Source of the DNA: an uncultured Bacteroidaceae bacterium
GTDB taxonomy: Bacteria > Bacteroidota > Bacteroidia > Bacteroidales > SM23-62
NCBI GenBank assembly: GCA_964574985.1
Contig: CAZNPH010000001.1
Location: 166,357-230,356 of the forward strand
DNA length: 64,000 bases
Direction: 5' to 3'
Shown piece by piece: positions 10,666 to 62,659 of the stretch; within the stretch, counting starts at the first letter, position 1, and each line of letters starts with the position of its first letter. The notes below the pieces were generated by a model that saw nothing but the letters and a program-made list of their open reading frames with translations, had not been told where the DNA came from and made no database searches. The translations under genes were made by a program, and so were the position numbers.

Positions 10666-10726
10666 TGCTCCCCAAAATTAACGATAATCATGAAAATATT
10701 TCTATTTTTACGTGACTGTTGAAAAA

Positions 10727-21187: not shown

Positions 21188-21216
21188 TTAACTTTGCCAA
21201 ACAAACAACAAACATC

Positions 21217-24025: not shown

Positions 24026-24074
24026 AAATGAAAGGAATTTATTATGGTCCGTTATCAACTCAATGGATGAAAGC

Positions 24075-38336: not shown

Positions 38337-38480
38337 ATGATCAGCAATCAATATACTTTTGCAGGTGCCATGCTTTTACTCATGGCGATAATTTTCGGAT
38401 GCAGCAGGGATCATGCTCCCCCACAGACCGTTAAATTTGATGTTTCACGCCTGGTAAAAACCGTTCAGGATTGTCCATGA
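38337..38480 (+). CDS. Small lipoprotein-like ORF or 5' remnant of a lipoprotein gene
   Basis: 47 aa: MISNQYTFAGAMLLLMAIIFGCSRDHAPP...DCP. It has a lipobox (IFGC). Its TGA (38478-38480) overlaps the first bases of repeat copy D. Below the ORF-track size cutoff. Confidence 0.25.
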   Translation: MISNQYTFAGAMLLLMAIIFGCSRDHAPPQTVKFDVSRLVKTVQDCP

Positions 38481-38599
38481 AACCCTCATCACCGATCCTG
38501 GATGTGGACAGTACGCGGGTGGCCGGCAACAAAAAATCATAATCCTTGAAATGAATATACACCGTATCAATTGCTAAACGATCAAATAAATATTTTCGA
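38477..38599 (+). repeat. Intergenic repeat family, copy D (5' box joined directly to the right half of the core, plus tail)
   Basis: ATGAAACCCTCATCACCGATC...GTGGACAGTACGCGGGTGGCCGGCAACAAAAAATCATAATC aligns with copy F apart from an internal deletion. GGCAAC (38525) lies 75 nt before ATG 38600. Confidence 0.8.
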
Positions 38600-39115
38600 A
38601 TGCAAACAGAAGATTCCATACGTATACTAAAGGCGCAGACGGAGAAACTCAATGAAAAAAAATTCGATCTGAATGCCTGGAAAAACTCCACCATCATTCT
38701 GCTGGAAAGGATTTTCGGTGGAGATAATAAAAAGATCGCCGCCCTCCGGAATATTAAATATGACCAGGGAAGCTGGGTACTGAGGGATGAAACAGGATAT
38801 ACAAATTCAATGGATGCCTGCCGGAAGATGGGCAGGGACGTGCTGGAAACGGCCATAGTCGAACTGGAAAATTTTGGAATGCCTGAAGTTACTGTTGACC
38901 AAATTGACTTCCGGATCATCCTCCATGCCCTTGAAGATGAGCTTTCGGGAAGTGAATTCAGGGAAATAAAAAGACTGCTTTCCAGGGAATCCAGTACCGG
39001 AGAAAAAAAGAAACTGATCATGACCAGACTGAAGTCCTTCGGACAGGATACGGCCGGGGCCATAATCGCTCATATTCTGACCAACAAACAGGTTTCCTCA
39101 AGGCTGAAGGATTAG
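38600..39115 (+). CDS. Hypothetical protein
   Basis: 171 aa with protein-like, helical composition. I recognise no motif. Preferred over the antisense ORF 38431..39063. Confidence 0.55.
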   Translation: MQTEDSIRILKAQTEKLNEKKFDLNAWKNSTIILLERIFGGDNKKIAALRNIKYDQGSWVLRDETGYTNSMDACRKMGRDVLETAIVELENFGMPEVTVDQIDFRIILHALEDELSGSEFREIKRLLSRESSTGEKKKLIMTRLKSFGQDTAGAIIAHILTNKQVSSRLKD

Positions 39116-40315: not shown

Positions 40316-41044
40316 TCAGTCTCCCCCGTCGTGCAGGCCACATTCCCTCTTTTCCTGTTCTTCCCACCACCATCTGCCCGAACGAAACTCTTCACCGGAT
40401 TTTACCGGTCGCGTACATGGCCGGCATCCGATGCTTTTATATCCTTTTTCGTGCAATCTGTTGAAAGGCACATGATGTGACCGTATATAATCCCAGACTT
40501 CCGATTCGCACCAGTCAATCAGCGGATTGACCTTGATCAGGCCGTTCTGATCATCCCATTCCACCCGTTTGTTGTAAAACCGGGTCAGACTCTGATCCTT
40601 CCTGAGTCCGCATACCCAGACATCCATTCCCCGCAGGGCCCGTTTGAGGGGTTCCTTCTTACGGATATGGCAGCATAATTTCCGGTTTTCAACGCTCTCG
40701 TAAAACAAATTGATCCCCTTGCTGTTCACCATTTTCTCAACCGCCTTGTAATCGGGGAAATAAACCCGTATCTGAATGCCGTAATGCCTGGCGGTCTCCT
40801 CAATCAACCGGTAGGTTTCCGGGAAAAGCCTTCCCGTATCAAGTGTAATAACAGGGATCTCTTTCCCGGCAGCAACAATCATGTCGGTGATCACCTGGTC
40901 TTCGGCACCCATACTGCTGGACTGCAAAACTTTACCGGGGTATTTCCCGGAGAAGTAATTCAATAATTCCAGCGGTGAATACCCTTTCAGCTCCGCATTC
41001 AGTGAATCGATCACTGCACTTTTGTCATTCTGATGAGATGTCAT
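40316..41044 (-). CDS. cysH: Assimilatory adenylyl-sulfate (APS)/PAPS reductase, Fe-S type
   Basis: CysH family (..ECGLH near the C-terminus). The CC...CxxC cluster motif (RKLCCHIRK; GCRPCT) indicates the APS-utilising type. The start is ATG 41044 or 41068. Confidence 0.86.
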   Translation of the reverse strand: MTSHQNDKSAVIDSLNAELKGYSPLELLNYFSGKYPGKVLQSSSMGAEDQVITDMIVAAGKEIPVITLDTGRLFPETYRLIEETARHYGIQIRVYFPDYKAVEKMVNSKGINLFYESVENRKLCCHIRKKEPLKRALRGMDVWVCGLRKDQSLTRFYNKRVEWDDQNGLIKVNPLIDWCESEVWDYIRSHHVPFNRLHEKGYKSIGCRPCTRPVKSGEEFRSGRWWWEEQEKRECGLHDGGD

Positions 41045-41089
41045 GTTCTCCTCCTCCCTGTAAAACATAAAATTGATGGAATTTTAAAT

Positions 41090-41818
41090 TCATGTTTCTT
41101 TTCCCCGAAACAGTTTTTCGGCTTTCCTGAAATTTTCATACCTGCCCAGATCGTACCAGTAATCGCTGTCATGACGGTATGCCCGGATGGGGTATTGTGC
41201 AGCAAGACGCAAATAAAGACCGGTCAGTGAAAAAGCGCCTTCTTCGGTGATCAGACTGAATATCCGGGGATCAACGACCTGAATGCAACTGTTTCCCAAT
41301 GGGATCAGTTTCTCTTTATCATTTCTTATGATTCTTTCTTCTCCGCTGACCAGGTTTCTCCATCCGGCGAGGTATCCTGACCGGGTGAAAAGAAAAGGCC
41401 GGGTCGTGGATCTCTTTTTTACCGCCAGGGTAACCAGTGAATTACCGGATAAATGGGCACGATATAGCGAAATCAGGTCCAGACCGGTCAGAACATCCAC
41501 ATTGTGCAATAAAAAAGGTTCATTTCCAAAGAACCATGACGCTTTCTTCAAGCCTCCCCCGGTATTCAGCAAACGCTCTGTTTCATCGGACGGCTCTACC
41601 CGTATATCAAAGTGGTTCCGTTCATCCAGAAAATCCCTGATCTGTTCCGCAAAATGAAAAACATTCACGATTATTTCATCAAACCCTGCAGTCCGGAGAT
41701 TCAAAATAACCCTTTCCAATAGTTTTTTCCCGTTGAAATCGACCAGCGCTTTCGGGGTATGGTCGGTCAATGGTGCCAGTCTGGTCCCTTTTCCGGCTGC
41801 AAGAATCATTGCCTTCAT
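41090..41818 (-). CDS. Sugar-1-phosphate nucleotidyltransferase (MurU-like)
   Basis: 242 aa. MKAMILAAGKGTRLAPLTDHTPKALV is the nucleotidyltransferase G-loop. Adjacent to the AmgK-like kinase. Confidence 0.78.
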   Translation of the reverse strand: MKAMILAAGKGTRLAPLTDHTPKALVDFNGKKLLERVILNLRTAGFDEIIVNVFHFAEQIRDFLDERNHFDIRVEPSDETERLLNTGGGLKKASWFFGNEPFLLHNVDVLTGLDLISLYRAHLSGNSLVTLAVKKRSTTRPFLFTRSGYLAGWRNLVSGEERIIRNDKEKLIPLGNSCIQVVDPRIFSLITEEGAFSLTGLYLRLAAQYPIRAYRHDSDYWYDLGRYENFRKAEKLFRGKET

Positions 41819-41913
41819 CCGAATATATTTGCGTTACCCATTTAATATTTAGCACGTTATAATGTCAGCTCAAAAGATTTGTGTTTTTGTTGCCGGCCTC
41901 CCGCAGGATCATA
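41819..41913 (-). repeat. Intergenic repeat family, copy E (reverse orientation; right half of the core plus tail)
   Basis: The reverse complement reads CCTGCGGGAGGCCGGCAACAAAAACAC...GAGCTGACATTATAACGTGCTAAATATTAAATGGGTAACGCAAATATATTCGG followed by ATG 41818. GGCAAC lies 76 nt before the start codon. Confidence 0.85.
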
Positions 41914-43347
41914 TTATTTTTCAAGCTCGCGGTGGAATATCACAGATTCCAGCCGGTAAACAGATTTTATGTACTGTGCCAGTTTTTCTGCACAATAAAC
42001 CGACCGGTGTTGTCCTCCTGTACAACCAAAAAACACGGATAAATGTTCAAACTGCCTTGCCTGGTATTTTTTCACCGACTGATCGATGATCCCAAAAACA
42101 TGGTTTAAAAATTCACTGACTTCAGGTTTCGATGACATATACCGGATCACTTTTTCGTCCATACCGGTAAAGGATTTATATTCTTCGAGACGGCCCGGAT
42201 TGGGCAGCAATCTGCAGTCAAACACGAATCCGCCGCCATGACCGCTGTAATCTCCGGGCATACCGTGTTTGTATGAAAAACTGGTGATTCTGATCTTCAT
42301 TGGCTGACCATACCCCTTCCCGTACTCCATCAAATCCTGCCGTGCAGACAGTTTTTCAAAACAACGGACCATTTCCGGAACATCTGAAGGAATATGCTTA
42401 TTCTCCAGCAACCAACGGATATTGTTCAGGGCATACGGAATGCTCTCCATAAAAAGCGGTTTGTTCTCGACCATACCGCGCAACCCGTATGTACCCATAA
42501 CCTGCATGATCCTCAGCCAGACCAGGGGATAATAATAACGCATGAAATCCGGTCTGCCGGTCCCGGTTCTTTTCTCCAATTCCTTCAGATAATGTTCCTG
42601 TAATTCCTGTCTCAGTGCAGGCGGCAAATCTGTTTTTGACTCATACAGAAGAGAAGCCACATCATATTGCAGGGGTCCTTTCCTCCCCCCCTGATAATCT
42701 ATAAAATAAACATCATCATGGATCAGCATGATGTTTCTGCTCTGGAAATCCCGGTACATGAAAAATTCTTTTTCTGCCCTGTCAATGAAGCGTGCGAAAC
42801 GCACGAAATCATCTTCCAGACTGTCCTCGTCAAATGATATACCGTGGATCCTGAGTCCAAAGTATTTGAAATAATTCAGATCCCACATGACCGAACGGCT
42901 GTCGAAACTTTCCCTGTGCGTACAAAGAGAATAATCAAGACCTGCATGTCCCTCGGTCTGAAAACAGATCAGCATGGACAAAACCCTTTTGTATATTTCT
43001 GTCAAATTCTCTGAAAAACCTGAAATTTTTTTTTCGTCCGCCACTTTTGCATGCAAAGTTACATCGCCCAGATCCTGAATAAGGTAAACGGATTTTTCCG
43101 GTTTCCGGGCGTAGATCTCCGGCACGGGTAAACCTTTCTTTCTGAAATGATCGGAAAAAGCAAGAAAAGCCCGGGTTTCTTTCCGGTCTTCATGGAATAC
43201 ACCCAGTGCACTCCGTTTCTTTCCCGAAATTCTGCAGTATTTTCGGGCTGATCCTGAACGCGGATCCAGTGACTGCATGTTCCCTGCACTTTCACCCGAC
43301 CATTCCCGGAATAACTCTGCAAGGATATCCTGTAATTCTTTCTGCAT
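41914..43347 (-). CDS. Fusion protein: aminoglycoside-phosphotransferase-fold kinase (AmgK-like) plus RapZ C-terminal-like domain
   Basis: Likely start at ATG 43347 (MQKELQDIL...). Kinase motifs DFQSRNIML and FIDYQGG. The C-terminal ~150 aa aligns to the RapZ CTD (SFSYKHGMP...FVFDCRLLPNP...TGMD...FGCTGGQHRSVYCAEKLAQY). Confidence 0.75.
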   Translation of the reverse strand: MQKELQDILAELFREWSGESAGNMQSLDPRSGSARKYCRISGKKRSALGVFHEDRKETRAFLAFSDHFRKKGLPVPEIYARKPEKSVYLIQDLGDVTLHAKVADEKKISGFSENLTEIYKRVLSMLICFQTEGHAGLDYSLCTHRESFDSRSVMWDLNYFKYFGLRIHGISFDEDSLEDDFVRFARFIDRAEKEFFMYRDFQSRNIMLIHDDVYFIDYQGGRKGPLQYDVASLLYESKTDLPPALRQELQEHYLKELEKRTGTGRPDFMRYYYPLVWLRIMQVMGTYGLRGMVENKPLFMESIPYALNNIRWLLENKHIPSDVPEMVRCFEKLSARQDLMEYGKGYGQPMKIRITSFSYKHGMPGDYSGHGGGFVFDCRLLPNPGRLEEYKSFTGMDEKVIRYMSSKPEVSEFLNHVFGIIDQSVKKYQARQFEHLSVFFGCTGGQHRSVYCAEKLAQYIKSVYRLESVIFHRELEK

Positions 43348-43436
43348 GAAAAAAGTTTCGGTCAGTTCAAATTTAATTATTTCCCCTGCCCCTGCAAAAA
43401 TCAGACACCCCGGCAACAGCATTGTATTAATTTGGT

Positions 43437-43444
43437 TATGTTTG
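43437..43444 (+). promoter_or_regulatory. -7 promoter box TATGTTTG (TAnnTTTG) upstream of aprB
   Basis: Exact consensus match 21 nt upstream of ATG 43466. Confidence 0.4.
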
Positions 43445-43465
43445 TATGTTTTCAATCATTTCGTC

Positions 43466-43903
43466 ATGCCAAGCTTCGTGATCACGGAAAAATGCGACGG
43501 CTGCAAATCCCTTGACAAAACAGCCTGCCAGTACGTATGCCCGAACGACCTGATGGTACTCGACATGGCAAAGAACAAAGCCATGAACAGGGCCCCCGAA
43601 ATGTGCTGGGAATGTTACAATTGCGTTAAGATATGCCCCACACAGGCCATCGAAGTCAGGGGTTATGCCGATTTTATGCCGTTGGGTGCGGTTGTCCGGC
43701 CCATGAAAAGTTCCGATGCCATATTGTGGTCGGTAAAATTCAGGGACGGCCAAATCAAAAGATTCAAATTTCCCACCCGCACCATCCCGGAAGGAAACAT
43801 TTCACCGGACGCCGGATATGAAACAGGATCAGATGACATGAAAAGTCCGCTCCTCAGAACAGAACCCGGTTCTCTCGGCATCTCAGAATTAAGCAAAATA
43901 TAA
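43466..43903 (+). CDS. aprB: Adenylylsulfate reductase, beta subunit (dissimilatory type)
   Basis: Start at ATG 43466. MPSFVITEKCDGCKSLDKTACQYVCPNDLMVLD...MCWECYNCVKICPTQAIEVRGY is the canonical AprB N-terminus with two ferredoxin-type Cys clusters. The ORF-track extension from 43277 is spurious. Confidence 0.9.
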   Translation: MPSFVITEKCDGCKSLDKTACQYVCPNDLMVLDMAKNKAMNRAPEMCWECYNCVKICPTQAIEVRGYADFMPLGAVVRPMKSSDAILWSVKFRDGQIKRFKFPTRTIPEGNISPDAGYETGSDDMKSPLLRTEPGSLGISELSKI

Positions 43904-43908
43904 AATTT

Positions 43909-45798
43909 ATGAACATCGGGGATCGATACGAAACCATCACCATGGACACCGACATTCTGATCCTGGGAGGAGGGATGGCTGCATGTGGCGCAGCATGGGA
44001 AGCCGCCCACTGGGCAAAAAAAAACAAACTGAAAATCACCCTGGTGGATAAAGCATCCATGGAACGTTCGGGAGCTGTAGCCATGGGACTGTCCGCCATC
44101 AATCTTTATATGGGCCTCGGCAAAGATGAAAATACAATCGAGGATTATGTCCGTTATGTCAGAAATGATCTGATGGGAGTGGCACGTGACGATCTGGTGG
44201 CCAATATTGCCCGTCATGTGGACTCTTCGGTCCATCTATTTGAAAAATGGGGACTTCCCATATGGAAAAATGATCAGGGTGGCTATGTCCGTGAAGGCCG
44301 GTGGCAAATCATGATCAACGGCGAATCCTACAAGCCGGTCGTCTCAGAAGCCGCAAAAAAAGCACTGGCAGAGCTCGGAGAAGACGGAAAATATCTGGAA
44401 AGAATATTCATTACCGCTCCTCTGGTGAAAGAGGGGAAGATTGCCGGAGCAACCGGTTTCAGTGTAAGGGAAAACAAGTTTTATGTCTTCAGGGCCAAAA
44501 GCGTGATCGTCGCTATGGGCGGTGCTGTTCATATTTTCAAACCCAGGTCTGTGGGGGAAGGACTGGGCAGATCATGGTATCCACCGTTCAATTCAGGAGC
44601 CAGTGCCTATTTCACCATCCGTGCAGGAGCAGAAATGACTTGTCAGGAAGTTCGTTTTGTTCCGGTACGTTTCAAGGATGCATATGGCCCGGTCGGGGCG
44701 TGGTTCCTGCTTTTTCAAGCCAAAACCACCAATGCCCGGGGAGAGGACTATATGCAAAAAAGAGCCGGCGAACTGAAAAAATGGGCGCCTTACGGAACAG
44801 CCAAACCCACTCCTGCCAACCTGAGGAACTACCTGATGATGCAGGAAATCGAAGAGGGAAACCATCCCATCTACATGCGAACCGACGAAGCCATAAAAAG
44901 AATCGCGGCCGGACAACAGGATGAAAAATCCGCAGCCATCCTCCTGAAAAAACTGGAATCGGAAGCCTGGGAAGATTTCCTTGACATGACCATCAGCCAG
45001 GCATTGTTGTGGGCATCGACCAATATCCGTCCTGATAACCAACCCTCCGAGATCGCTGCTTGTGAGCCGTATTTTATCAGTTCTCATTCGGGAGCATCCG
45101 GTGCATGGGTGAGCGGGCCCGTAGACTTTGCTCCTGATCCCTATAAATGGGGGTATCCCAATATGACTACGGTAAACGGACTCTTCGCGGCGGGTGATGC
45201 ATCCGGCGCATCCAGCCATAAATTTTCATCAGGTTCTTTTACCGAGGGAAGGATTGCCGGCAAATCCGCCGCTGCATATGCACTGGATCACCCTGAGTCC
45301 GTTCAAACGGATCAAACGGAAATTACAGGATTGAAGGAACAGGTATTCAAACCCCTTTCCCTATACCATGAGCACTGTGATTATGCAAATGACAAGAATG
45401 TAAATCCGTATTTCATCAAACCGCAGATGTTCATGTTCAGACTGCAAAAAATCATGGATGAATATGCGGGAGGAGTATCCGGTGGTTTCAGAACATCCGG
45501 GCCTCTTTTGAAAAAAGGACTGGAATATCTGGATTTCCTGGAAGAGGATGCCGGAAAGCTGGCAGCAGAAAACACCCACGAATTGATGCGCTGCTGGGAA
45601 AATATCCACCGGCTATGGCAGGCAAGATCCCATATCCTGAGCATGCTGTACCGCGAAGAAACCAGGTGGCCGGGATATTATTTCCGAACCGATTTCCCTC
45701 AATTATCGGAGGATTGGAAAGTGTTTGTCAATTGCAGACGGGAACCCGGAACCGGTCAATGGAGCAATTTCAAGCGGGACATCATTGAAATGGTCTGA
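43909..45798 (+). CDS. aprA: Adenylylsulfate reductase, alpha subunit (FAD flavoprotein)
   Basis: 629 aa. DILILGGGMAACGAAWEA dinucleotide fold and fumarate-reductase-family architecture. Sits immediately after aprB. Confidence 0.92.
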   Translation: MNIGDRYETITMDTDILILGGGMAACGAAWEAAHWAKKNKLKITLVDKASMERSGAVAMGLSAINLYMGLGKDENTIEDYVRYVRNDLMGVARDDLVANIARHVDSSVHLFEKWGLPIWKNDQGGYVREGRWQIMINGESYKPVVSEAAKKALAELGEDGKYLERIFITAPLVKEGKIAGATGFSVRENKFYVFRAKSVIVAMGGAVHIFKPRSVGEGLGRSWYPPFNSGASAYFTIRAGAEMTCQEVRFVPVRFKDAYGPVGAWFLLFQAKTTNARGEDYMQKRAGELKKWAPYGTAKPTPANLRNYLMMQEIEEGNHPIYMRTDEAIKRIAAGQQDEKSAAILLKKLESEAWEDFLDMTISQALLWASTNIRPDNQPSEIAACEPYFISSHSGASGAWVSGPVDFAPDPYKWGYPNMTTVNGLFAAGDASGASSHKFSSGSFTEGRIAGKSAAAYALDHPESVQTDQTEITGLKEQVFKPLSLYHEHCDYANDKNVNPYFIKPQMFMFRLQKIMDEYAGGVSGGFRTSGPLLKKGLEYLDFLEEDAGKLAAENTHELMRCWENIHRLWQARSHILSMLYREETRWPGYYFRTDFPQLSEDWKVFVNCRREPGTGQWSNFKRDIIEMV

Positions 45799-45808
45799 GA
45801 AAAAGCAA

Positions 45809-47068
45809 GTGAATAATAATGCGAATTCATCAAGAATAGTTGTAGCCGGGGGAGGAATCAGCGGAATCACCACCGCCATCGAGATCGCTGAAACAGGTTA
45901 TGAAGTCCTGCTGATCGAAAAGAATCCCGGTCTGGGCGGACGAGTGGCCAGAATGAACAAATATTTCCCGAAGCTTTGTCCCCCGGCATGTGGCCTGGAG
46001 ATCAATTTCCGGAGAATCCGCAACAATTCCAGGATATATCTGCTTACCTCCACGGAAATAATTGCGATTAAAGGGAAAGAAGGGAACTTCAGGGTCCGGC
46101 TCCGTACCGGACCGGACCGGATCAATGAGAATTGCACGGCCTGCGGGTTATGCGCCGAAGTCTGTCCCGTGGAAACAAAGGACGAATTCAATTACGGGAT
46201 GTCTGTACACAAAGCCGTCTACCTGTCTCATGAAATGACCTATCCTTACCGGTATACCATTGATGCATCCGTCTGCCCGGGAGAAACATGCGGACGCTGT
46301 GAGGCGGTTTGCCCGTACGGTGCCGTCGACCTGAAAGCCCGGGCCATGGAAAGGGAAATCCATGTTGCGGCTGTCGTATTTGCCACAGGATGGGAACCCT
46401 TTGATCCAAAAGCCATTCCTGACTATCAGTTTGGAAAACATCCCGACGTAATTACCAATGTCATGATGGAAAGACTTATTGCACCGGAAGGTCCTACCGG
46501 CGGCAAGGTACTTTGTCCGTCCGACAGGGGAAAACCCGGTTTCATTGCTTTTGTCCAGTGTACGGGTTCCAGGGATGAACAATATCTCCCCTATTGTTCG
46601 GGAGTATGTTGTTCCTCCTCCCTGAAAGAAGCCATGATTTTCCTGGAACAAAATCCTGAGGGAAAAGCAGTCATATATTATATTGATCTCAGGGTAACCG
46701 GCCGGGGGGAAGATTTCCTGAAAAAGGCGGTCATTCACCCCAACATTGAATTGAAAAAAGGCAGGGTCGGCAGGATTCTAACCAATGAAAAAACGGGAAA
46801 ACCTGTGATCGAGACAGAAAATATCCTTTCCGGCAAAAAGATCAGAAAACAGGCGGACCTGGTTGTGCTGGCCACCGGAATGGTCCCGGCTGAAATCAAA
46901 CTGGAAGGCATACAATCCGGCCCCAAAGGATTTCAGACTTCTTCAATCGAAGGAATTTATATCGCCGGATGTGCCGGGAAACCCATGGATGTATCATCCT
47001 CACTGAAAGATGCAACAGGCACTGCCCTGAAAGCCATACAGTCACTGAGTACAATGAAACGTTCATGA
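45809..47068 (+). CDS. qmoA: Quinone-modifying oxidoreductase subunit QmoA (HdrA-like flavoprotein)
   Basis: RIVVAGGGISGITTAIEIAETGYEVLLIEK FAD fold and CxxCxxCxxxCP motifs. I favour GTG 45809 as the start; the alternative ATG 45725 would overlap aprA by 74 nt. Confidence 0.83.
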   Translation: MNNNANSSRIVVAGGGISGITTAIEIAETGYEVLLIEKNPGLGGRVARMNKYFPKLCPPACGLEINFRRIRNNSRIYLLTSTEIIAIKGKEGNFRVRLRTGPDRINENCTACGLCAEVCPVETKDEFNYGMSVHKAVYLSHEMTYPYRYTIDASVCPGETCGRCEAVCPYGAVDLKARAMEREIHVAAVVFATGWEPFDPKAIPDYQFGKHPDVITNVMMERLIAPEGPTGGKVLCPSDRGKPGFIAFVQCTGSRDEQYLPYCSGVCCSSSLKEAMIFLEQNPEGKAVIYYIDLRVTGRGEDFLKKAVIHPNIELKKGRVGRILTNEKTGKPVIETENILSGKKIRKQADLVVLATGMVPAEIKLEGIQSGPKGFQTSSIEGIYIAGCAGKPMDVSSSLKDATGTALKAIQSLSTMKRS

Positions 47069-49209
47069 TGTCTCTTTCCAAAAAGACAGCGGTTTATATC
47101 TGTACGGGTTGTCGTATCGGGGATGCCCTGGATACCAGTAAAATTCTCAATGAACTGCCGGAGGAATTTTCCCTTTCTGTATGCAAATCGCATAACCATT
47201 TATGCAGCCTGGATGGAGTACGTATGATTGAAAAAGATATTCAGGATGACGGAATCCAGTCTTTGGTTCTGGCGGCCTGTTCGGCCAGATACAAAACCGG
47301 GATTTTCAGCTTTGACCCTGAAATACCGGTTGAACGGGTCAACCTGAGGGAACAAGTTGCATGGACTCAGAACCCGGACAACGAAGATACCCGGATGATG
47401 GCCATGGATTATCTCCGTATGGGTATCAACCGTGCGGATACCACCTCCGTGCCCGGGGGATATGTTCCAGGGGAACTGAACGCAGATATTCTGGTTATCG
47501 GCGCAGGAATTTCCGGATTAACCGCTGCCATTGAAATATCCAAAACAGGATACAGGGTCATACTCATTGAAAAAGAAAGATCTCCGGGTGGTTTCGCGGC
47601 CAGACTCCACAGGCAGCTTCCTGCAGACCCTCCGTGGAATAAGCCGGTTTTGCCGGAGATCCATTCCCTCATAGAAAAAGTGGTTAACAGCGATAGAATT
47701 GAATTGCATTGCTCCTCAGAGGTCAGAAGCATAGGGGGTGAACCCGGAAATTTCATTATCGAATACCTGGATACAGGAAATACATGTACCATACGGGCAG
47801 GGGCGATCATTCAGGCCACAGGATGGAAACCATATGATCCTCTAAAAATAAAGGAATACAATTACGGCAGCAGTCCGGATATCATCACCAACATTCAATT
47901 CGAGGAAATGGCCCGGGAAGGAGCCATTAAACGGCCTTCCGACGGCATGAAGATCAGAAGCATCCTTTTTGTTCAATGCGCCGGTTCACGGAATAAGGAC
48001 CACCTGCCCTATTGTTCAACGTACTGTTGTAATGTTACCCTCAAACAGGCACTGTACGTAAGGGAAACCAATGCCGATGCACAAATATTCATTGTATACA
48101 AGGACATCCGGACACCCGGTGCAGGAGAATTCTTTTACCATGAAGTTCAGAAAGAAGACAATATTTTTATGACCAAAGGGGAAGTCAAAAGGATTTACGC
48201 GGGGGATGGAGTTCTGCACACAGAAACAATGGATGCCCTGATGGGTAAAGACATATGCCTGAAAACCGATCTGGTGGTGCTGGCCATGGGTATGGTCCCC
48301 GAAGCTTCAGGAAGCCTTCATCTGAATTACAGGCAGGGACCGGAATTGCCGGATCTGAAATACGGGTTTCCTGACTCACATTACATTTGTTTCCCCTATG
48401 AGACCAGACGTACGGGGATTTATTCAACGGGTACGGTAAGGGCTCCGATGGATATTGTCTCCTCAAAGGAGGATGCTGCCGGTGCCGCCCTGAAAGCAAT
48501 CCAGTGCTTTGAATCCACAAAGCGGGGAGAATCAGTTCATCCCAGATCCGGAGACAGGAGTTTTCCCGAACTGTACATGCCCAGGTGCACCGACTGCAAG
48601 CGTTGTACCGAAGAATGCCCTTTCGGTGTGTATGACGAAACCGAAAATGGCACTCCCATTCTGAATCCTTCCCGGTGCCGCCGCTGCGGCATTTGTATGG
48701 GATCATGCCCTGAGCGGATCATTAATTTTGCCGATTTTTCGATCCAATCCGTATCGGCCATGATCAAATCAATTGAGATCCCACCCGAAACGGAAGAAAA
48801 ATTCCGGATCCTGGTTTTTGCATGCGAAAACGACGCCATACCGGCATTCGACATGGCCGGACATAAAAAACTCCGGTACAGTCCGTTTATCAGGATCATC
48901 CCGGTCCGCTGCATTGGAAACGTCAATGCGGTTTGGATATCCGATGCTTTTTCCCAGGGATTCGACGGAGTACTGCAGATCGGATGTAAACCCGGGGAAG
49001 ATTATCAGTGTCATTTCATTCTGGGCAGTGAACTGACCCAAATACGGAACAAAAATATACAGGATACCCTGAACACGATGATGCTTGAACCTGAACGTGT
49101 ACAGACCGAATTCATTGAGATCACCGAGTATTACCGCATTCCGGAAATCATAAACGGATTTGCCGAACAGATCAGAATAATCGGGGCGAATCCTTTCAAA
49201 GGCATGTGA
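47065..49209 (+). CDS. qmoB: QmoB (HdrA-like flavoprotein with ferredoxin and MvhD-like C-terminal domains)
   Basis: Start at ATG 47065 (ATGA overlap with the qmoA stop). DILVIGAGISGLTAAIEISKTGYRVILIEK, two 4Fe-4S motifs (CKRCTEECP, CGICMGSCP), and an MvhD-like tail (ILVFACENDA...IPVRCIGNV). Confidence 0.87.
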   Translation: MMSLSKKTAVYICTGCRIGDALDTSKILNELPEEFSLSVCKSHNHLCSLDGVRMIEKDIQDDGIQSLVLAACSARYKTGIFSFDPEIPVERVNLREQVAWTQNPDNEDTRMMAMDYLRMGINRADTTSVPGGYVPGELNADILVIGAGISGLTAAIEISKTGYRVILIEKERSPGGFAARLHRQLPADPPWNKPVLPEIHSLIEKVVNSDRIELHCSSEVRSIGGEPGNFIIEYLDTGNTCTIRAGAIIQATGWKPYDPLKIKEYNYGSSPDIITNIQFEEMAREGAIKRPSDGMKIRSILFVQCAGSRNKDHLPYCSTYCCNVTLKQALYVRETNADAQIFIVYKDIRTPGAGEFFYHEVQKEDNIFMTKGEVKRIYAGDGVLHTETMDALMGKDICLKTDLVVLAMGMVPEASGSLHLNYRQGPELPDLKYGFPDSHYICFPYETRRTGIYSTGTVRAPMDIVSSKEDAAGAALKAIQCFESTKRGESVHPRSGDRSFPELYMPRCTDCKRCTEECPFGVYDETENGTPILNPSRCRRCGICMGSCPERIINFADFSIQSVSAMIKSIEIPPETEEKFRILVFACENDAIPAFDMAGHKKLRYSPFIRIIPVRCIGNVNAVWISDAFSQGFDGVLQIGCKPGEDYQCHFILGSELTQIRNKNIQDTLNTMMLEPERVQTEFIEITEYYRIPEIINGFAEQIRIIGANPFKGM

Positions 49210-49213
49210 TACA

Positions 49214-50305
49214 ATGCAAACGGCCATCCCAGATACCGATTTCATCAAACAGCTGAAACAACGTTCCGGTTCCGGTTTAAGTACCTGTATGCAATGTGGT
49301 GCATGTACCGCTGTTTGCGAATTGTCGCCGGCAGACAATCCCTTTCCGAGAAAAGAAATGATCTGGGCATCATGGGGACTGAAAAACAAACTGATGGGCG
49401 ACCCGGACGTCTGGCTGTGCCATCATTGCGGAGATTGTACGGCCACCTGTCCCAGGGAGGTAAAACCCGGGGAAGTATTATCGGCAGTCAGGCATATTAC
49501 CTATGCCTCTTATTCCCGGCCGGGGTTTCTGGCCAGAATGCTGTCAAATCCCCTATACCTTCCATTGGTGGTTGGCGTACCCGCACTGATCATCCTAACG
49601 ATCATTGCCATGGCCGGGACCTTTGGTATTCCTGAAGGAAAGATCAACTATTCCGCTTTTTTCCCCCATGGCTGGTTGAATATTTCCTTTACGGCCATCA
49701 CCCTGCTGTCTTTTTCCGGTTTGGCATGGAGCATCAGGGATTTCCGCAGAGATATCCTCCGGCATCTTCCCGGCCCAACTTCACAGAAGGGGCAGATCAG
49801 AAACTTCATGGTCACCATCCGGGATATCGTACTGCACACCCGGTTCAAAAAATGCAGATACGGCAAATACCAGTACTATGCTCATTTCATGGTATTTGCA
49901 GGTTTTATCCTTTTACTGCTTGTCACCTTATTCGCCATCCTCAGCACCTTGTTCTTCGAATACCCGCTGCCCTTTCTGCATCCCGCGAAAATTGCCGGAA
50001 ACGCAGCTGCACTTCTTTTACTTTCCGGAGGAGGTATTCTGATTGCAAAACGCATCACCGGTGGGGGGAAAATCAATAATGACTACACCGATTGGTTCTT
50101 TCTGATCATTTTGTACCTGCTGGTCATTACGGGCGTACTGGTGGAAATGGCCCGGTTCCTGGATTGGGCACCGGCCTATCACATCTATTTCATCCATCTG
50201 GAATTGGTATGGCTGTTGATCATCTACGCCCCCTATACAAAATTTGCCCACGTGGTTTACCGTACAATGGCCATGGCCGAAGCCCGGAGATGTGGAAGGA
50301 TTTGA
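49214..50305 (+). CDS. qmoC: QmoC (HdrC-like Fe-S domain fused to a membrane cytochrome-b-like domain)
   Basis: 363 aa. CMQCGACTAVCE and CHHCGDCTATCP clusters, followed by about 6 hydrophobic helices. Confidence 0.85.
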   Translation: MQTAIPDTDFIKQLKQRSGSGLSTCMQCGACTAVCELSPADNPFPRKEMIWASWGLKNKLMGDPDVWLCHHCGDCTATCPREVKPGEVLSAVRHITYASYSRPGFLARMLSNPLYLPLVVGVPALIILTIIAMAGTFGIPEGKINYSAFFPHGWLNISFTAITLLSFSGLAWSIRDFRRDILRHLPGPTSQKGQIRNFMVTIRDIVLHTRFKKCRYGKYQYYAHFMVFAGFILLLLVTLFAILSTLFFEYPLPFLHPAKIAGNAAALLLLSGGGILIAKRITGGGKINNDYTDWFFLIILYLLVITGVLVEMARFLDWAPAYHIYFIHLELVWLLIIYAPYTKFAHVVYRTMAMAEARRCGRI

Positions 50306-50316
50306 TTCCCGCGGTC

Positions 50317-50691
50317 TCAGGTCGCAATCATGGTTACAGGGAGGCCGGTAATTTCCTGAAACAATTCGCCGGCTTCCATTAATTCTTCGTCATCTTCTTC
50401 GTAGTACCAATTGATGAGGACCTCCTTTTCTGAACGGTGAATGAGCTCAAGATTTTTCAAAAAATTAATCAAGCATTTGGAAGAACTCGTATTGAAATGC
50501 TCCAATTCAATATTGATGGTGGTTTTTTGCTGAGGATTTCTTGCATATTCCAGGGACCAATCAATCAGTGATCTGTAAAATTCAACCGCATTCTCAGGAT
50601 TTGATCTTCCGCGGATTTCGACAAAACCCTGTCCAGGATCTGATTTTATGGCCGGTGTTTTATCTGTGGCTTTAATGTCAATGGATTCCAT
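50317..50691 (-). CDS. DUF1987 (SiaC-like) protein
   Basis: Start at ATG 50691 (MESIDIKATDKTPAI...GFVEIRGRSNPENAVEFY...INWYYEEDDEE), the typical DUF1987 pattern. Confidence 0.72.
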   Translation of the reverse strand: MESIDIKATDKTPAIKSDPGQGFVEIRGRSNPENAVEFYRSLIDWSLEYARNPQQKTTINIELEHFNTSSSKCLINFLKNLELIHRSEKEVLINWYYEEDDEELMEAGELFQEITGLPVTMIAT

Positions 50692-50799
50692 AACAATATT
50701 TTTATTACTCAATAAATTTATAAAATATGGCATGAATTACCATGACATTGTAAAAAAATGATGTAAAAAAAACCGGATGGCAAGAAAATAATTTGGTTG

Positions 50800-50888
50800 T
50801 GGTGCCCAGGACAAGAATCGAACTTGCACTCCCGATTGCGGGAACATGGCCCTCAACCATGCGCGTCTACCTGTTCCGCCACCTGGGC
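50800..50888 (-). tRNA. tRNA-Leu (anticodon GAG), CCA encoded
   Basis: The reverse complement folds as a type-II cloverleaf. Acceptor GCCCAGG/CCTGGGC, anticodon stem CATGG/CCATG with loop TTGAGGG, long variable arm (CCCG/CGGG), T-loop TTCGATT, 3' ACCA. Confidence 0.9.
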
Positions 50889-50910
50889 GTCAGGGGGAAT
50901 ATACACTCAG

Positions 50911-50994
50911 TGCCCAGAACAGGACTCGAACCTGCACGATGTTGCCATCACTGGTCCCTGAAACCAGCGCGTCTACCAATTCCGCCATCTGGGC
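50911..50994 (-). tRNA. tRNA-Leu (anticodon CAG), CCA not encoded
   Basis: Acceptor GCCCAGA/TCTGGGC, anticodon stem CTGGT/ACCAG with loop TTCAGGG, variable arm GATG/CATC, T-loop TTCGAGT. Confidence 0.9.
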
Positions 50995-58338: not shown

Positions 58339-59664
58339 ATGAAGATACTCAGGCATAAATATTTCAGGTTTGCATACATTTCTTTGATCTATATCCTTTT
58401 TGTCTTGTGGTTGGAGTGCTATTGGTTGCTGGCCGGACTCCCCATCATTGCGGATATTTTTCTTACCGGATTTATCAACTGGGAACAGCTGAAAATAAGC
58501 AAAAGAGGGAAGAATCATCCCGGACTGGAATGGTTGAAAGCCATCCTGTTTGCACTGATTACCGTTCTGTTGATCCGGGGGCTTCTGCTGGAGGCATATA
58601 CCATACCCACTCCTTCCATGGAAAAAACCCTGATGGTGGGAGATTACATTTTTTTGAGCAAAATCAGTTACGGACCCAGGATGCCCATGACCCCCCTTTC
58701 AGTTCCTTTTGTCCACAACCGGCTGTCTTTTGCCAACAACATCCGGTCCTTCCTGACAAATCCGCAACTCTCCTACAAGCGGCTGGCGGGATTGTCGGAG
58801 ATCGAACCCAACGATGTGGTCATATTCAATTTTCCGGAGGGTGATACCGTCGTACTCCAGTTTCCCAATCAAAGCTATTACGTCCTGATCAGAAAATACG
58901 GAAGAAAAAGCATTCATGATCAATATGATATAATCTACCGGCCCGTAGATAAAAGGGATCATTTTGTCAAGCGTTGTGTGGGCCTTCCTGGAAACCGGTT
59001 TGAAATACGGCACGGAAATGTATATGTAAATGGAAAAAGGACCGAAGATCCTCCCTTGCTGCAGTTCAGTCATTATGTCAAAACCCGGGGCAGACAGATC
59101 GATCCGGAAATATTGGGGGAATTGCATATTGACAACGCACACCGGTATTTCGATCCGGAGAAATCCAGTTATATCATGCCCCTCACCATGAAGACCGCTG
59201 GGATTCTCAGAACACTGCCGGAGGTACAGACGGTTACCAAACTCGAGAACACCAACAGAAAAGTCTCCTACCGGTCGGTATTCCCTTACAGCCCATATTA
59301 CAAATGGACCGAGGACAATTATGGTCCCCTGGAGATCCCGGCCCGGGGAAAAACAGTACGACTGACCCTGGAAAATCTCCCCTTGTACAAACGGATCATT
59401 GCCGTATATGAGCATAATGAACTATCGGTAAACGATGGAGTCATACACATCAATGGCATTCCTTCCAACAGGTACACTTTCAAGATGAATTATTTTTTCA
59501 TGCTTGGCGACAACCGGCACAATTCAGCCGATTCAAGATTCTGGGGATTTGTGCCTGAAGACCATATTGAAGGAAAGGCCGTATTCGTATGGCTGTCCCT
59601 GAAGACGGGGGCCAAACTCCCCAATAGATTCCGCTGGAAAAAAATGTTTAAAATTATTGAGTAA
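58339..59664 (+). CDS. lepB: Signal peptidase I
   Basis: 441 aa. Catalytic Ser context IPTPSMEKTLMVGD, KRCVGLPG and GDNRHNSADSRFWGFVP. Confidence 0.88.
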   Translation: MKILRHKYFRFAYISLIYILFVLWLECYWLLAGLPIIADIFLTGFINWEQLKISKRGKNHPGLEWLKAILFALITVLLIRGLLLEAYTIPTPSMEKTLMVGDYIFLSKISYGPRMPMTPLSVPFVHNRLSFANNIRSFLTNPQLSYKRLAGLSEIEPNDVVIFNFPEGDTVVLQFPNQSYYVLIRKYGRKSIHDQYDIIYRPVDKRDHFVKRCVGLPGNRFEIRHGNVYVNGKRTEDPPLLQFSHYVKTRGRQIDPEILGELHIDNAHRYFDPEKSSYIMPLTMKTAGILRTLPEVQTVTKLENTNRKVSYRSVFPYSPYYKWTEDNYGPLEIPARGKTVRLTLENLPLYKRIIAVYEHNELSVNDGVIHINGIPSNRYTFKMNYFFMLGDNRHNSADSRFWGFVPEDHIEGKAVFVWLSLKTGAKLPNRFRWKKMFKIIE

Positions 59665-59688
59665 CTTTAAAAAAATCATTTCAATCAG

Positions 59689-61089
59689 ATGAATTGGCTC
59701 AACGTATTCAGAAATAAATATTTCAAATTTTCGGCCGCCGCAATCCTTTATATCTTCTGGGTTATCTGGCTGGACAATTACTGGTTTCTGGCCGGACTCG
59801 CCGTGATCTTTGACATATACGTGACCCGGAAGGTGAACTGGTCTTTCTGGAAAAAGAGGGGTCAGAAAAACAGTGCTTTTATTGAATGGCTGGATGCATT
59901 GATATTTGCGGTTATTGCCGTGACCCTCATCAATATTTTCATTTTCCAGAACTACCGCATCCCCAGTCCGTCCATGGAAAAAACCCTCCTTGTAGGAGAT
60001 CATCTGGCGGTAAGTAAGGTAGCCTATGGGCCCAGACTCCCCATAACGCCCCTTACCATACCATTTACCCAGAACACGCTTCCATTGCTGGGAAGAACAT
60101 ATCTTGACTGGGTCCAGTGGCCCTACAAGCGGCTGGCCGGATTCGACCGGGTAAAGAATGACGATATTGTGGTATTTAACTTCCCTGCGGGAGATACGGT
60201 TATCCTGCAGAACACAGCAGCCAGCTACTATTCGATCCTCAGGGATCATGCATTTGAATTCAGGAACCGGGATATGATGGAAAAAAAACGCATCAGGAGC
60301 TGGAATGAATATCTGGATATTGCGCGGGACTATGCCTGGCATACATACGATATTGTCACCCGCCCGGTGGACCGCAGGGACAATTATATCAAAAGGTGTA
60401 TCGGGATCCCCGGAGATTCCATTGAGGTCGTGCACGGACAGGTATTTGTCAACGGCCGGAAACAAAAAGAGATCCCCGGACTGCAGCATCACTACGAGGT
60501 GATCACCAGCGGAACCCCGATCAATCCCAGGGCCCTTGAAAGGCTCGGCATATCACGTGACGAATGGAGGATGGGACAAAACTACACATATTCACTGCCC
60601 CTGACCGATGAAAATCGCAGGAAGATCGAAAAATTCTCCAATGTGGTGGCCATCAAAAAAAACGAAACACCGGACAATGTCTACAATTTTCAGATTTTTC
60701 CGCACGATCCCCGTTTTCCCTGGACACTGGATAACTTTGGACCGCTCTGGGTACCGGCAAAAGGGGTGACTATCGGACTGAACGTTGAAAACCTCCCTCT
60801 ATATGAAAGGATCATCGATGTCTGTGAAAACAATGATCTCACATTGGAAAATGACCGGATAAAAATCAACGGGGAATACGTCACCAGCTATACCTTCAAA
60901 ATGAACTATTATTTCATGATGGGGGACAACCGTCATTCATCGGCCGATTCAAGATACTGGGGATTTGTTCCCGAAGATCATATCGTCGGGGAACCCCTGC
61001 TGATATGGCTTTCTATTGACAAAAACAAAAGATTTCCGGAAAAGGTCCGCTGGAAAAGGATCTTACGGTCTGCCTATCATGAAAATTAA
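59689..61089 (+). CDS. lepB: Signal peptidase I (tandem paralog)
   Basis: 466 aa. IPSPSMEKTLLVGD, KRCIGIPG and GDNRHSSADSRYWGFVP. Confidence 0.88.
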   Translation: MNWLNVFRNKYFKFSAAAILYIFWVIWLDNYWFLAGLAVIFDIYVTRKVNWSFWKKRGQKNSAFIEWLDALIFAVIAVTLINIFIFQNYRIPSPSMEKTLLVGDHLAVSKVAYGPRLPITPLTIPFTQNTLPLLGRTYLDWVQWPYKRLAGFDRVKNDDIVVFNFPAGDTVILQNTAASYYSILRDHAFEFRNRDMMEKKRIRSWNEYLDIARDYAWHTYDIVTRPVDRRDNYIKRCIGIPGDSIEVVHGQVFVNGRKQKEIPGLQHHYEVITSGTPINPRALERLGISRDEWRMGQNYTYSLPLTDENRRKIEKFSNVVAIKKNETPDNVYNFQIFPHDPRFPWTLDNFGPLWVPAKGVTIGLNVENLPLYERIIDVCENNDLTLENDRIKINGEYVTSYTFKMNYYFMMGDNRHSSADSRYWGFVPEDHIVGEPLLIWLSIDKNKRFPEKVRWKRILRSAYHEN

Positions 61090-62657
61090 AAAGGGAAATC
61101 TTCCTCTACATCGGGCTGTTCAAGTTCTTGGTCCTCTGGCCTTTCAGCAATCTGGTGCACGGGGTTTCCATCCACATAGATGGCCTTGAATGGTATGGTG
61201 GGGCATGCATACTCACAGGCCCCGCAACCCACACAAATATCGGGATCCACTTCGGGAATGGTCAACGTACCTTTATACGGGATCATTCTGACCGCTTGTG
61301 TGGGACAATGTTCCGAACAAGATCCACATGCCGTGTTCTCGGTATACACCACACAGTTTTCCTTCACAAAATGTACTTGTCCAATCTGGGTGATTTTCTT
61401 GTCTTCCACCGACAGACTCATAATGGCACCGGTGGGGCATACCTCACTGCATGCGGTACATTCGAAATTGCAGTAGTTGGTGGAATAGTCCATGTGGGGC
61501 TGCATGAATCCGGCCAGTCCGAATTCAGTTACCGAGGGCCTCAAAACATTGGTCGGACAAATACTTACGCATAAATGACATGCCGTGCAGGTACCGGTAT
61601 AATGCTCAATACCCAGAGATCCCGGCGGGGAAACCGGAAATTCCTTGTGGATCTCAACAGTTGTGGGTTTTTCGTTCAGGGATTCCGTTCCTTTCGTACC
61701 GGCAATGCAGGAGGCCGTTCCGATCCCCATCAAACCGGCGAATCCGGCCAGAAAACCCCGCTTTTCCATATCCGGACCATCTCCCTGTTCTTTTCCGGAC
61801 GGGAAAGCAGGAGCATATCCGATGCTGTTGAAAGGACAAACGGTAATGCAATTATAACAGGAGACACATCTGGAAAAATCAACTTCCTTCCGTTTGAAAT
61901 TGATGCATTCCGCCTTGCACACAAAAGCACATTTGCCGCATGCCGTACAACTTTGCTCATCAATCCGGATCCTGAAAGGGGCAATCCTGGAAATGAGTCC
62001 GAGCAAAGCACCCACCGGGCAAACGGTATTGCAGAACAGGCGCCCGCGGACCGAAGCCATCCAGATCAGCATTCCAAGGAACAAAAAGGGAAATACAAGA
62101 CTTGCCAGCGGAACAGGATCCAGATTGTGGGGGTACAACCAGAAAACATTGACAGACTCCATCGCCGAGGCGGCCAGGTTATTTACCGAAACGACCAGGG
62201 GCCTGAACAGATCGGAAAAAATGCGTCCGAAATTGCTATAGGGATCCAGAAAGCCGATGACCGTGACAGTACCGCTCAGAAAGACCAGAACGGACAGAGC
62301 CAGAAATCCGTATCGCCATGCATTGGCAGGTTTTGAAAACCTGAAACGGAACTTTTTCCTGGCCCATATGGAAATCCTTGTGATCACATCCTGAAAAATC
62401 CCCAGGGGACAGATGGCGGAACAGTACACCCGTCCGAACAAAGCCGTCAGGAGCATGATGACCATAAAGCCAACGGATGCCAGTGAAAGCAACGAGATAA
62501 ATTTTAACAGGGAAGGAACAAACTGAAGATATAGTATGCCCCCCGAATAATCTTCGGCCAGGAGATTCCTGAAATCCAGAAAGACCAGGGAAGAAGCCAG
62601 TATAAAAAGAACCGCGATGAATACCCTGATCTTTTTCAGAAAGGCCTGTTTCCTCAT
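61086..62657 (-). CDS. Membrane-bound polyferredoxin (NapH/MauN-like TM domain plus multiple 4Fe-4S domains)
   Basis: 523 aa. N-terminal TM helices with CxxxCP motifs (CSAICPLG, CNTVCPVG). Several CxxCxxCxxxCP ferredoxin motifs follow. Confidence 0.8.
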   Translation of the reverse strand: MRKQAFLKKIRVFIAVLFILASSLVFLDFRNLLAEDYSGGILYLQFVPSLLKFISLLSLASVGFMVIMLLTALFGRVYCSAICPLGIFQDVITRISIWARKKFRFRFSKPANAWRYGFLALSVLVFLSGTVTVIGFLDPYSNFGRIFSDLFRPLVVSVNNLAASAMESVNVFWLYPHNLDPVPLASLVFPFLFLGMLIWMASVRGRLFCNTVCPVGALLGLISRIAPFRIRIDEQSCTACGKCAFVCKAECINFKRKEVDFSRCVSCYNCITVCPFNSIGYAPAFPSGKEQGDGPDMEKRGFLAGFAGLMGIGTASCIAGTKGTESLNEKPTTVEIHKEFPVSPPGSLGIEHYTGTCTACHLCVSICPTNVLRPSVTEFGLAGFMQPHMDYSTNYCNFECTACSEVCPTGAIMSLSVEDKKITQIGQVHFVKENCVVYTENTACGSCSEHCPTQAVRMIPYKGTLTIPEVDPDICVGCGACEYACPTIPFKAIYVDGNPVHQIAERPEDQELEQPDVEEDFPF

Positions 62658-62659
62658 GC

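Follow-up and report, generated by a model that had tools for sequence, protein, structure and literature searches.

A native aprBA-qmoABC operon in an uncultured, deep-branching Bacteroidales bacterium, and the roles it may have away from sat and dsr

Members of the Bacteroidales are regarded as fermentative degraders of polymers, and a complete dissimilatory aprBA-qmoABC module in a genome of this order raises the question of what it does there. The locus considered here lies in a stretch of 64,000 nucleotides (nt), called the window below (positions 166,357 to 230,356, forward strand, of contig CAZNPH010000001.1 in assembly GCA_964574985.1), and consists of the genes aprB, aprA, qmoA, qmoB and qmoC at window positions 43466-50305. 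Their products are the two subunits of adenosine 5'-phosphosulfate (APS) reductase, AprBA, and the membrane-bound complex QmoABC. Few enzyme systems of the sulfur cycle are understood as well as AprBA-QmoABC, and the operon itself teaches nothing new; the genes have already been annotated in many public metagenome-assembled genomes (MAGs), at least one paper has tabulated them, and it is their physiology in the Bacteroidales that is unexplained. Two questions are taken up, i.e., whether the operon is genuine and native to its host and what it may do there. To the first the answer is a firm one, as the identity and the native status of the operon, taken together, are nearly certain in our judgment.

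An earlier note on this DNA, made from the sequence alone, had proposed a complete aprBA-qmoABC module with tightly packed genes (gaps of 4-10 nt and an ATGA overlap of qmoA and qmoB) and an MvhD-like tail on QmoB, and each of these points held up. Five open reading frames (ORFs) on the forward strand fill the region, and from aprB to qmoC the gaps between them measure 5, 10, -4 (the ATGA overlap) and 4 nt. Given this tight same-strand spacing, and an order kept in all complete Bacteroidales loci, aprB to qmoC probably form one transcription unit. The aprB gene (43466-43903, + strand) encodes an iron-sulfur subunit of 145 amino acids (aa) that scores 188 bits against the NCBIfam equivalog TIGR02060 (cut-off 135.65) and has a complete C-terminal tail domain (PF12139, 105.7 bits, profile positions 1-80 of 82). 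The eight cluster cysteines are found at residues 10, 13, 21, 25, 47, 50, 53 and 57, and Trp48 lies within the CWEC motif. The product of aprA (43909-45798, + strand, 629 aa), the catalytic subunit containing flavin adenine dinucleotide (FAD), covers model positions 1-615 of 616 of TIGR02061 with 867 bits (cut-off 641.75). The AprA of Archaeoglobus fulgidus (PDB 1jnr/2fja) aligns with it end to end (747 bits, residues 5-622), and 10 of 10 active-site and FAD-pocket residues are identical (N74, Y95, E141, W234, R265, V273, G274, L278, R317 and H398 in A. fulgidus numbering); the same ten are near-invariant over 79 aligned sequences.

The first of the three Qmo genes, qmoA (45809-47068, + strand), encodes a flavoprotein of the HdrA-like type, in which GGGISG is the FAD motif and cysteines are grouped as CxxCxxCxxxC at residue 109 and again at residues 156-168. 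A GTG start was chosen for it, giving the 419-aa product called by gene callers on identical contigs; a longer ORF with a TTG start at 45725 overlaps aprA. The qmoB gene (47065-49209, + strand, 714 aa), the start of which overlaps the qmoA stop codon, encodes a second HdrA-like flavoprotein, with a GAGISG FAD motif, two CxxCxxCxxxC motifs at residues 508 and 538, and a C-terminal MvhD-like domain that QmoA lacks (PF02662, MvhD/FlpD, 128 bits, residues 582-707). The HdrA-type model NF040770 matches QmoA with 348 bits and QmoB with 376 bits, both far under the model cut-off of 1100. The membrane subunit encoded by qmoC (49214-50305, + strand, 363 aa) combines an HdrC-like Fe-S domain, with two CxxCxxCxxxC motifs at residues 25-35 and 69-79, and a hydrophobic domain of the cytochrome b type, with at least five hydrophobic segments carrying histidines of the conserved type; it scores 360 bits against the equivalog NF038018 (cut-off 300). 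Since AprB, AprA and QmoC exceed the cut-offs of their curated models, the domain content is fitting, the A. fulgidus enzyme aligns throughout and the diagnostic cofactor and active-site residues are all intact from AprB to QmoC, the window proteins are, judged by sequence, bona fide dissimilatory AprBA and QmoABC, with catalysis as a prediction.

The genome around the operon is that of a deep-branching, uncultured member of the Bacteroidales, as far as its sequence indicates. Threonyl-tRNA synthetase (ThrRS) is encoded 4 kb downstream of the module; its named close homologs are all from Bacteroidales or Bacteroidota MAGs and its nearest non-self relative is 76% identical, which together place the host in this order without a close sequenced relative. 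The nearest non-self relative of AprA is 75% identical, so that AprA seems to have diverged in step with the housekeeping gene. Moreover, an upstream block of mnmA, cysH, a gene for a MurU-like nucleotidyltransferase and a gene fusion described below is common to the window and to two Bacteroidales MAG loci, L011 ('Bacteroides sp.' SM23_62) and L012; the flank downstream of the module is not common to either. The Bacteroidota-type context that had been proposed is borne out by both the ThrRS homologs and these syntenic flanks. The assembly is corroborated from outside as well: both junctions of the module recur in one independent Logan contig, a second Logan contig holds part of the module, and the same arrangement is found on a 347-kb NCBI contig. 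In composition, the G+C content at third codon positions (GC3) of the module is 0.542, compared with 0.534 +/- 0.044 in the other 29 genes (within 0.2 standard deviations), and the relative synonymous codon usage of the five genes correlates with that of the rest of the window at r = 0.934, equal to the control mean of 0.934. Among the annotated genes of the window there was no sign of an integrase, a transposase or a repeat-flanked structure.

The signals upstream of aprB are also those of the host group. A -7 box of the Bacteroidota type, TATGTTTG (43437-43444, + strand), lies 22 nt upstream of the aprB start codon and fits TAnnTTTG, as the earlier note had reported in support of native expression. 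Over the whole window this motif is not enriched (35 matches vs 39.5 expected); only positional and comparative analysis was informative. By position, 8 genes of the window have it in the 80 nt before their start, where about 1 would be expected. By comparison, 12 of 20 related Bacteroidales loci have such a box 30-40 nt ahead of aprB, and in ten of these 12 it reads TATGTTTG; one locus, L010, has a further TAnnTTTG box about 140 nt upstream of aprB. A scan for sigma-70 promoters and terminators gave nothing above chance, as expected for Bacteroidota. Taken together, these results describe an operon that is genuine, native, vertically inherited and under its own promoter.

How far the operon extends among other Bacteroidales was followed in a set of 80 retrieved loci, which holds no Chlorobia sequences and none of Apr lineages I and II of the sulfur-oxidizing bacteria (SOB). 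Neighbour-joining trees were built with 100 bootstraps for AprA and 50 resamplings each for QmoB and QmoC. The window and the Bacteroidales loci formed one clade in all of them (100/100 for AprA, 50/50 for QmoB and 50/50 for QmoC), nested within bacterial sequences of the sulfate-reducer type and most often beside a group dominated by Gemmatimonadota. The order aprB-aprA-qmoA-qmoB-qmoC is found in every Bacteroidales locus long enough to tell. In a scan of GTDB species representatives, at least 20 Bacteroidales MAGs, variously labelled Bacteroidales, Bacteroidota, 'Bacteroides sp.', Rikenellaceae and Porphyromonadaceae, had AprA 71-75% identical to that of the window, which itself sits on its own deep branch, with no GTDB species representative closer than 75% in AprA among the matches listed. 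In a search of protein databases the best 120 matches were all at least 72% identical; the module is represented there by more than 120 clusters, some with 58-133 members, and the named members among the matches listed are all MAG or metagenome proteins, none being from a cultured isolate. The names of the MAGs indicate anoxic, sulfidic sources, i.e., estuary sediment of the sulfate-methane transition zone (SMTZ), a cold seep, the Zodletone spring and a meromictic lake.

The trait has been recorded before. In the Zodletone study, the genome Zod_Metabat.810, of the Bacteroidales family UBA5072, was tabulated with sat, aprAB, qmoABC, asr and hdr, the dsr columns being empty, Bacteroidota were counted among the lineages of sulfate reduction, and one Bacteroidales genome from the water column was scored as a sulfite oxidizer through reverse AprAB and QmoABC (Hahn et al. 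2022; PMC9040765). A contig of Zod_Metabat.810 is our locus L021, a member of the clade. Besides this study, Diao et al. (2023) and the DiSCo paper, the literature on Bacteroidales with aprAB, qmoABC or asr yielded generic mentions only. Apr-Qmo is accordingly a recurrent and already recorded feature of some uncultured Bacteroidales families, rare for the order and patchy within UBA5072. The rarity that the earlier note implied has to be given up in view of the 20 or more species-level MAGs, the more than 120 protein clusters and the genome tabulated in 2022. It had also allowed that the genome might come from a lineage in which apr-qmo is routine, for example Chlorobi or Desulfobacterota; the module is indeed recurrent in other Bacteroidales MAGs, but the lineage is neither of the two named.

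Several individual loci in the set deserve mention. In one Bacteroidales sub-lineage (L014, L018, L020, L022 and L029) aprB is directly preceded, on its own strand, by the gene for a CBS-domain protein of the ClC channel type (about 590-600 aa), and the -7 box lies in the space separating them; a link to anion handling would be speculative. The AprA of L015 (DAOVJU010000110.1), labelled 'Chlorobiota bacterium', falls inside the Bacteroidales clade beside L009, L017 and L019, and a TAAGTTTG box stands upstream of its aprB; the taxonomic label of this entry may be wrong. A second, divergent apr pair is present in L063 (Bacillota), with AprA 35% and AprB 41% identical to the window proteins; the DiSCo paper discusses 'AprAB-like' paralogues, and the extra genes of L063 may belong to them. 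Similarly, L070, of a deltaproteobacterium, has a second apr pair (AprA 50% and AprB 63% identical to the window proteins).

What the operon does depends largely on its partners, and these were sought in the window by comparing all ORFs of at least 200 aa, and ORFs in the gaps between annotated genes, with Pfam or NCBIfam. No sat, dsr, sox, soe or hppA gene was found in the 64 kb by these scans, in agreement with the earlier note as regards sat, dsr and sox. The linked sat gene of the canonical pathway is thus missing from the window, in no frame of which an ATP-sulfurylase motif occurs. No sulfur gene was found either in about 15 kb of extra flank beyond the window, where the left side (L084) encodes GH116, a pyridoxal phosphate-dependent decarboxylase and a tetratricopeptide repeat protein and the right side (L083) DUF362, LarC/LarE/LarB-type genes, which belong to the synthesis of the nickel-pincer cofactor, and WbqC. 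No dsr genes were present in the window or in any related locus. Across the locus set, sat was called by ATP-sulfurylase signature motifs within 10 kb of aprA, and it was linked in 40 of the 60 non-Bacteroidales loci and in 33 of the 46 among these with at least 8 kb of flank. In those loci (L023-L082, as against L003-L022 and L029 in the Bacteroidales clade) it often precedes aprB, whereas in the types of Gemmatimonadota and Acidobacteriota it follows qmoC. Bacteroidales flanks vary between sub-lineages and are of housekeeping type by sequence (the ClC channel, purA, relA/spoT, fur, nhaA and a murQ fusion); with such flanks, and with sat unlinked, the module persists as a stand-alone unit.

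A sulfate-related theme had been suggested on the basis of an assimilatory cysH gene and two sulfatase genes in the window. All three genes are real and, apart from the module, no others in the window relate to sulfur; the theme has to be restricted to cysH (40316-41068, - strand), which lies 2.4 kb upstream of the module on the opposite strand and encodes a thioredoxin-dependent APS reductase of the Fe-S type (263 bits against TIGR02055, cut-off 235; motifs CC at 132-133, CxxC at 215-218 and ECGLH). It is found near aprB in four loci (the window, L010, L011 and L012) and is a recurrent neighbour rather than a member of the operon. The sulfatases (3159-4835, - strand, and 7092-8687, + strand) were rejected as part of the theme and add nothing to it: they are 35-40 kb away, are never syntenic with the module in related loci and are typical glycan-utilization genes.

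The path of electrons through AprBA and QmoABC is established from the Desulfovibrio and Archaeoglobus systems, and every cofactor-binding element needed for it is intact in the window sequences. By analogy, QmoC, for which a heme b domain and two [4Fe-4S] clusters are predicted, would exchange electrons with the menaquinone pool, HdrA-like QmoB and then QmoA would relay them to the two [4Fe-4S] clusters of AprB, and the FAD of AprA would interconvert APS and sulfite plus AMP. If the module ran reductively, APS would be supplied by a Sat or CysDN encoded at another place in the genome and reduced with electrons derived from menaquinol, as an accessory respiratory electron sink comparable to the fumarate respiration of Bacteroidales, and the sulfite would pass to a non-Dsr sulfite reductase of the Asr type or the assimilatory type. 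It is conceivable, at distinctly less than an even chance, that widespread uncultured Bacteroidales in anoxic sediments use AprBA-QmoABC as a stand-alone, Dsr-independent, menaquinone-linked APS/sulfite redox module, which may serve polysaccharide fermenters as an APS-respiring electron sink or provide an ATP-yielding branch of sulfite oxidation.

As for the direction in vivo, our inclination, which stops a little short of even chances, is towards APS reduction driven by quinol and feeding a non-Dsr sulfite sink. Four observations lead to it. The clade is nested among lineages that mostly have sat-apr-qmo (Gemmatimonadota, Acidobacteriota and Desulfobacterota), and the sources of the MAGs are anoxic and sulfidic. 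The recurrent neighbourhood of an assimilatory APS reductase implies that the cell makes APS, and genes working in the same direction tend to cluster. Finally, the clade member Zod_Metabat.810 was credited with sat, aprAB, qmoABC, asr and hdr but with no dsr (PMC9040765).

Several points weigh against this reading. The direction is not readable from the AprBA or QmoABC sequences themselves, and the caution of the earlier note, that direction and pathway completeness stay open, still stands; Chlorobia, for example, run a similar module of the type found in sulfate-reducing bacteria (SRB) oxidatively. By our rough estimate, sulfate reduction through a cytoplasmic enzyme of the Asr type would hardly recover the 2 ATP invested in activation. 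In none of the 12 Bacteroidales loci, over about 186 kb of flank inspected, was sat linked to the module, compared with 33 of the 46 other loci (Fisher p = 6e-6). The canonical, energy-conserving step of sulfite reduction also appears to be missing, since published dsrAB surveys contain no Bacteroidia: among 950 genomes with dsrAB, those of Bacteroidota belonged only to Chlorobia and Kapabacteria (Diao et al. 2023). Moreover, the co-occurrence of genes in Zod_Metabat.810 is soft, as only two asr genes are listed for it, and 'sat' was defined in that study by EC 2.7.7.4 together with EC 2.7.1.25 and may stand for CysNC or PAPSS; apr is missing from other UBA5072 MAGs of that table, which makes the trait a patchy one (PMC9040765).

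The alternative that survives best leaves the operon native and intact and reverses its flow. Sulfite, from the breakdown of organosulfonates, from the cleavage of thiosulfate or from the environment, would be oxidized to APS by AprBA, the electrons would enter menaquinone through QmoABC and be passed on to fumarate reductase or cytochrome bd, and an unlinked Sat would release sulfate and ATP, so that the cell would gain ATP at the substrate level and be rid of a toxic compound. Where Apr and Sat occur and Dsr is lacking, sulfite oxidation is the usual interpretation, SAR11 and the roseobacters being examples, and Chlorobia use Qmo in this way. Oxidation would yield energy by our estimate, whereas reduction of sulfate without Dsr is marginal, and the lack of dsr in the window, in all related loci and in the Bacteroidia among the surveyed genomes (Diao et al. 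2023) fits it well, as does the reverse score given to the water-column genome by the Zodletone authors (PMC9040765). However, in the roughly 186 kb of flanking sequence from Bacteroidales no gene for the production or transport of sulfite is linked to the module, co-expression with the neighbouring assimilatory APS reductase would set up a futile cycle, the clade derives from reducer-type lineages and is found in strongly reducing habitats, and a true, reversible Sat is so far only presumed in these genomes. We consider this oxidative use a serious possibility, though one that we would not expect to prove correct.

A second alternative, which we consider improbable, is that the module serves assimilation or a low-flux housekeeping function, either as a quinol-driven alternative to the thioredoxin-dependent CysH or as an 'AprAB-like' assimilatory paralogue. 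The recurrent cysH neighbour agrees with it, and AprAB-like paralogues encoded beside asr and assimilatory sat/cysD/cysC genes have been described in the DiSCo paper, where a function in assimilation is proposed for them. According to the same paper, such paralogues lack the C-terminal tail of AprB and have gaps in the capping and helical domains of AprA. The window proteins, on the other hand, have the complete AprB tail and an AprA free of such gaps that passes its equivalog cut-off; the AprA-like 3'-phosphoadenosine 5'-phosphosulfate (PAPS) reductase 8a8o aligns with only 331 bits, compared with 747 for the A. fulgidus AprA. The assignment of the window AprBA to the AprAB-like paralogues was ruled out on these grounds. 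A dedicated membrane complex of three subunits would moreover be a costly device for assimilation, and sulfide is plentiful in the habitats, judged by the sources of the MAGs.

Downstream of the module, a gene for a SiaC-family phosphoprotein (siaC-like, 50317-50733, - strand) is convergent to qmoC at a distance of 12 nt; its GC content is markedly low (0.379, with GC3 of 0.40 vs about 0.53 in the window), and a gene of this kind also follows qmoC in L009, L017 and L019, at 35-39% identity. Just past it are two adjacent tRNA-Leu genes (anticodons GAG and CAG, 50800-50994, - strand), the sole island-like feature of the region, as tRNA genes are a classic landmark of island integration. That the region is a chimera of assembly or binning, as the earlier note had allowed for, or a recent island from a sulfate reducer with the tRNA-Leu pair marking its integration site, has this pair, the low GC of the adjoining siaC-like gene and a downstream flank different from L011 and L012 in its favour, and is effectively refuted by the agreement of the independent assemblies reproducing both junctions, codon usage and GC3 that do not set the module apart from the other genes, an upstream synteny kept in two other species, a promoter box conserved across the clade, an AprA divergence in line with that of ThrRS and annotated genes free of mobile or repeat-flanked structures.

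Otherwise the neighbourhood is an ordinary chromosomal one. The window has genes of nitrogen and metal metabolism and of salvage (amtB with a glnB-like gene, asnA, znuABC-like genes, ribH and ndk), of replication and repair (recF, dciA and an addAB-like pair), of protein handling and membrane insertion (three FKBP genes, yidC and two lepB) and of nucleotide, tRNA and translation functions (pyrG, trmD, mnmA and thrS-infC-rpmI-rplT), as well as dapB. The fusion in the upstream block joins an AmgK-like sugar kinase to a RapZ C-terminal domain (513-aa ORF; 502 aa as called on identical contigs) and looks unusual; together with the MurU-like nucleotidyltransferase gene it occupies 41090-43455 on the - strand, divergent from aprB, and this pair is conserved in L011 and L012. 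Three tandem genes for FKBP-type isomerases and two tandem, unusually long signal peptidase I genes (441 and 466 aa) are found at 19770-22152 (+) and 58339-61089 (+), respectively, and a 523-aa membrane polyferredoxin of the NapH/NapF-like type is encoded beside a DUF362 protein at 61086-63580 (-). Sizeable ORFs without a Pfam match lie at 10712-11107 (+), 11344-12621 (+), 22157-22861 (-), 23159-24121 (-) and 38431-39063 (-), and those of them scanned against NCBIfam had no match there either.

The interest of the locus thus lies in a coherent, vertically inherited clade of Bacteroidales that keeps the module under purifying selection and under its own Bacteroidota promoter, without linked sat and apparently without Dsr. 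Part of what aprA-based surveys, and automated calls of 'sulfate reduction' or 'sulfite oxidation', pick up probably comes from Bacteroidales of unexplained physiology. If the stand-alone use of the module were true, these organisms would form a guild that has been overlooked in the sulfur cycle of sediments, and part of the signal in aprA marker surveys would be misassigned; the clade could also show what role Apr-Qmo has without Dsr.

Among known systems, the canonical sat-aprBA-qmoABC of Desulfovibrio, other Desulfobacterota and the Gemmatimonadota and Acidobacteriota MAGs has the same five proteins, order and cofactor motifs as the window, and its AprA is 62-68% identical. It differs in having sat adjacent in 33 of 46 loci (0 of 12 in the Bacteroidales); furthermore, the window host belongs to the Bacteroidales, in a class without reported dsrAB, and its promoter is of the Bacteroidota -7 type. 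The sat-aprBA-qmoABC of Chlorobiaceae, which belong to the Bacteroidota in the sense of GTDB, also comprises SRB-type AprBA with a menaquinone-linked QmoABC and is used for sulfite oxidation. Unlike that system, the window has a Bacteroidales host, as seen from the ThrRS relatives and syntenic flanks, no linked dsr or sox, and sat unlinked. Kapabacteria UBA2268 ('Ca. Thermonerobacter thiotrophicus') are non-phototrophic Bacteroidota with dissimilatory sulfur genes, but they belong to another class and carry reductive DsrAB, DsrD and DsrL-2 (Diao et al. 2023). Three loci labelled 'Bacteroidetes' (L066, L068 and L079) cluster with AprA of the Ignavibacteria type, have another gene arrangement and fall outside the clade of the window. 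More distantly, the AprAB-like paralogues, situated near assimilatory sulfur genes (DiSCo), and the archaeal PAPS reductase (PDB 8a8o) share the family of flavoprotein and ferredoxin folds. The closest counterparts are Zod_Metabat.810 and the other Bacteroidales MAG loci (L003-L022, including SM23_62), which have the same operon order and an AprA 72-75% identical to that of the window, belong to the same clade in AprA, QmoB and QmoC and, for the most part, carry the same -7 box.

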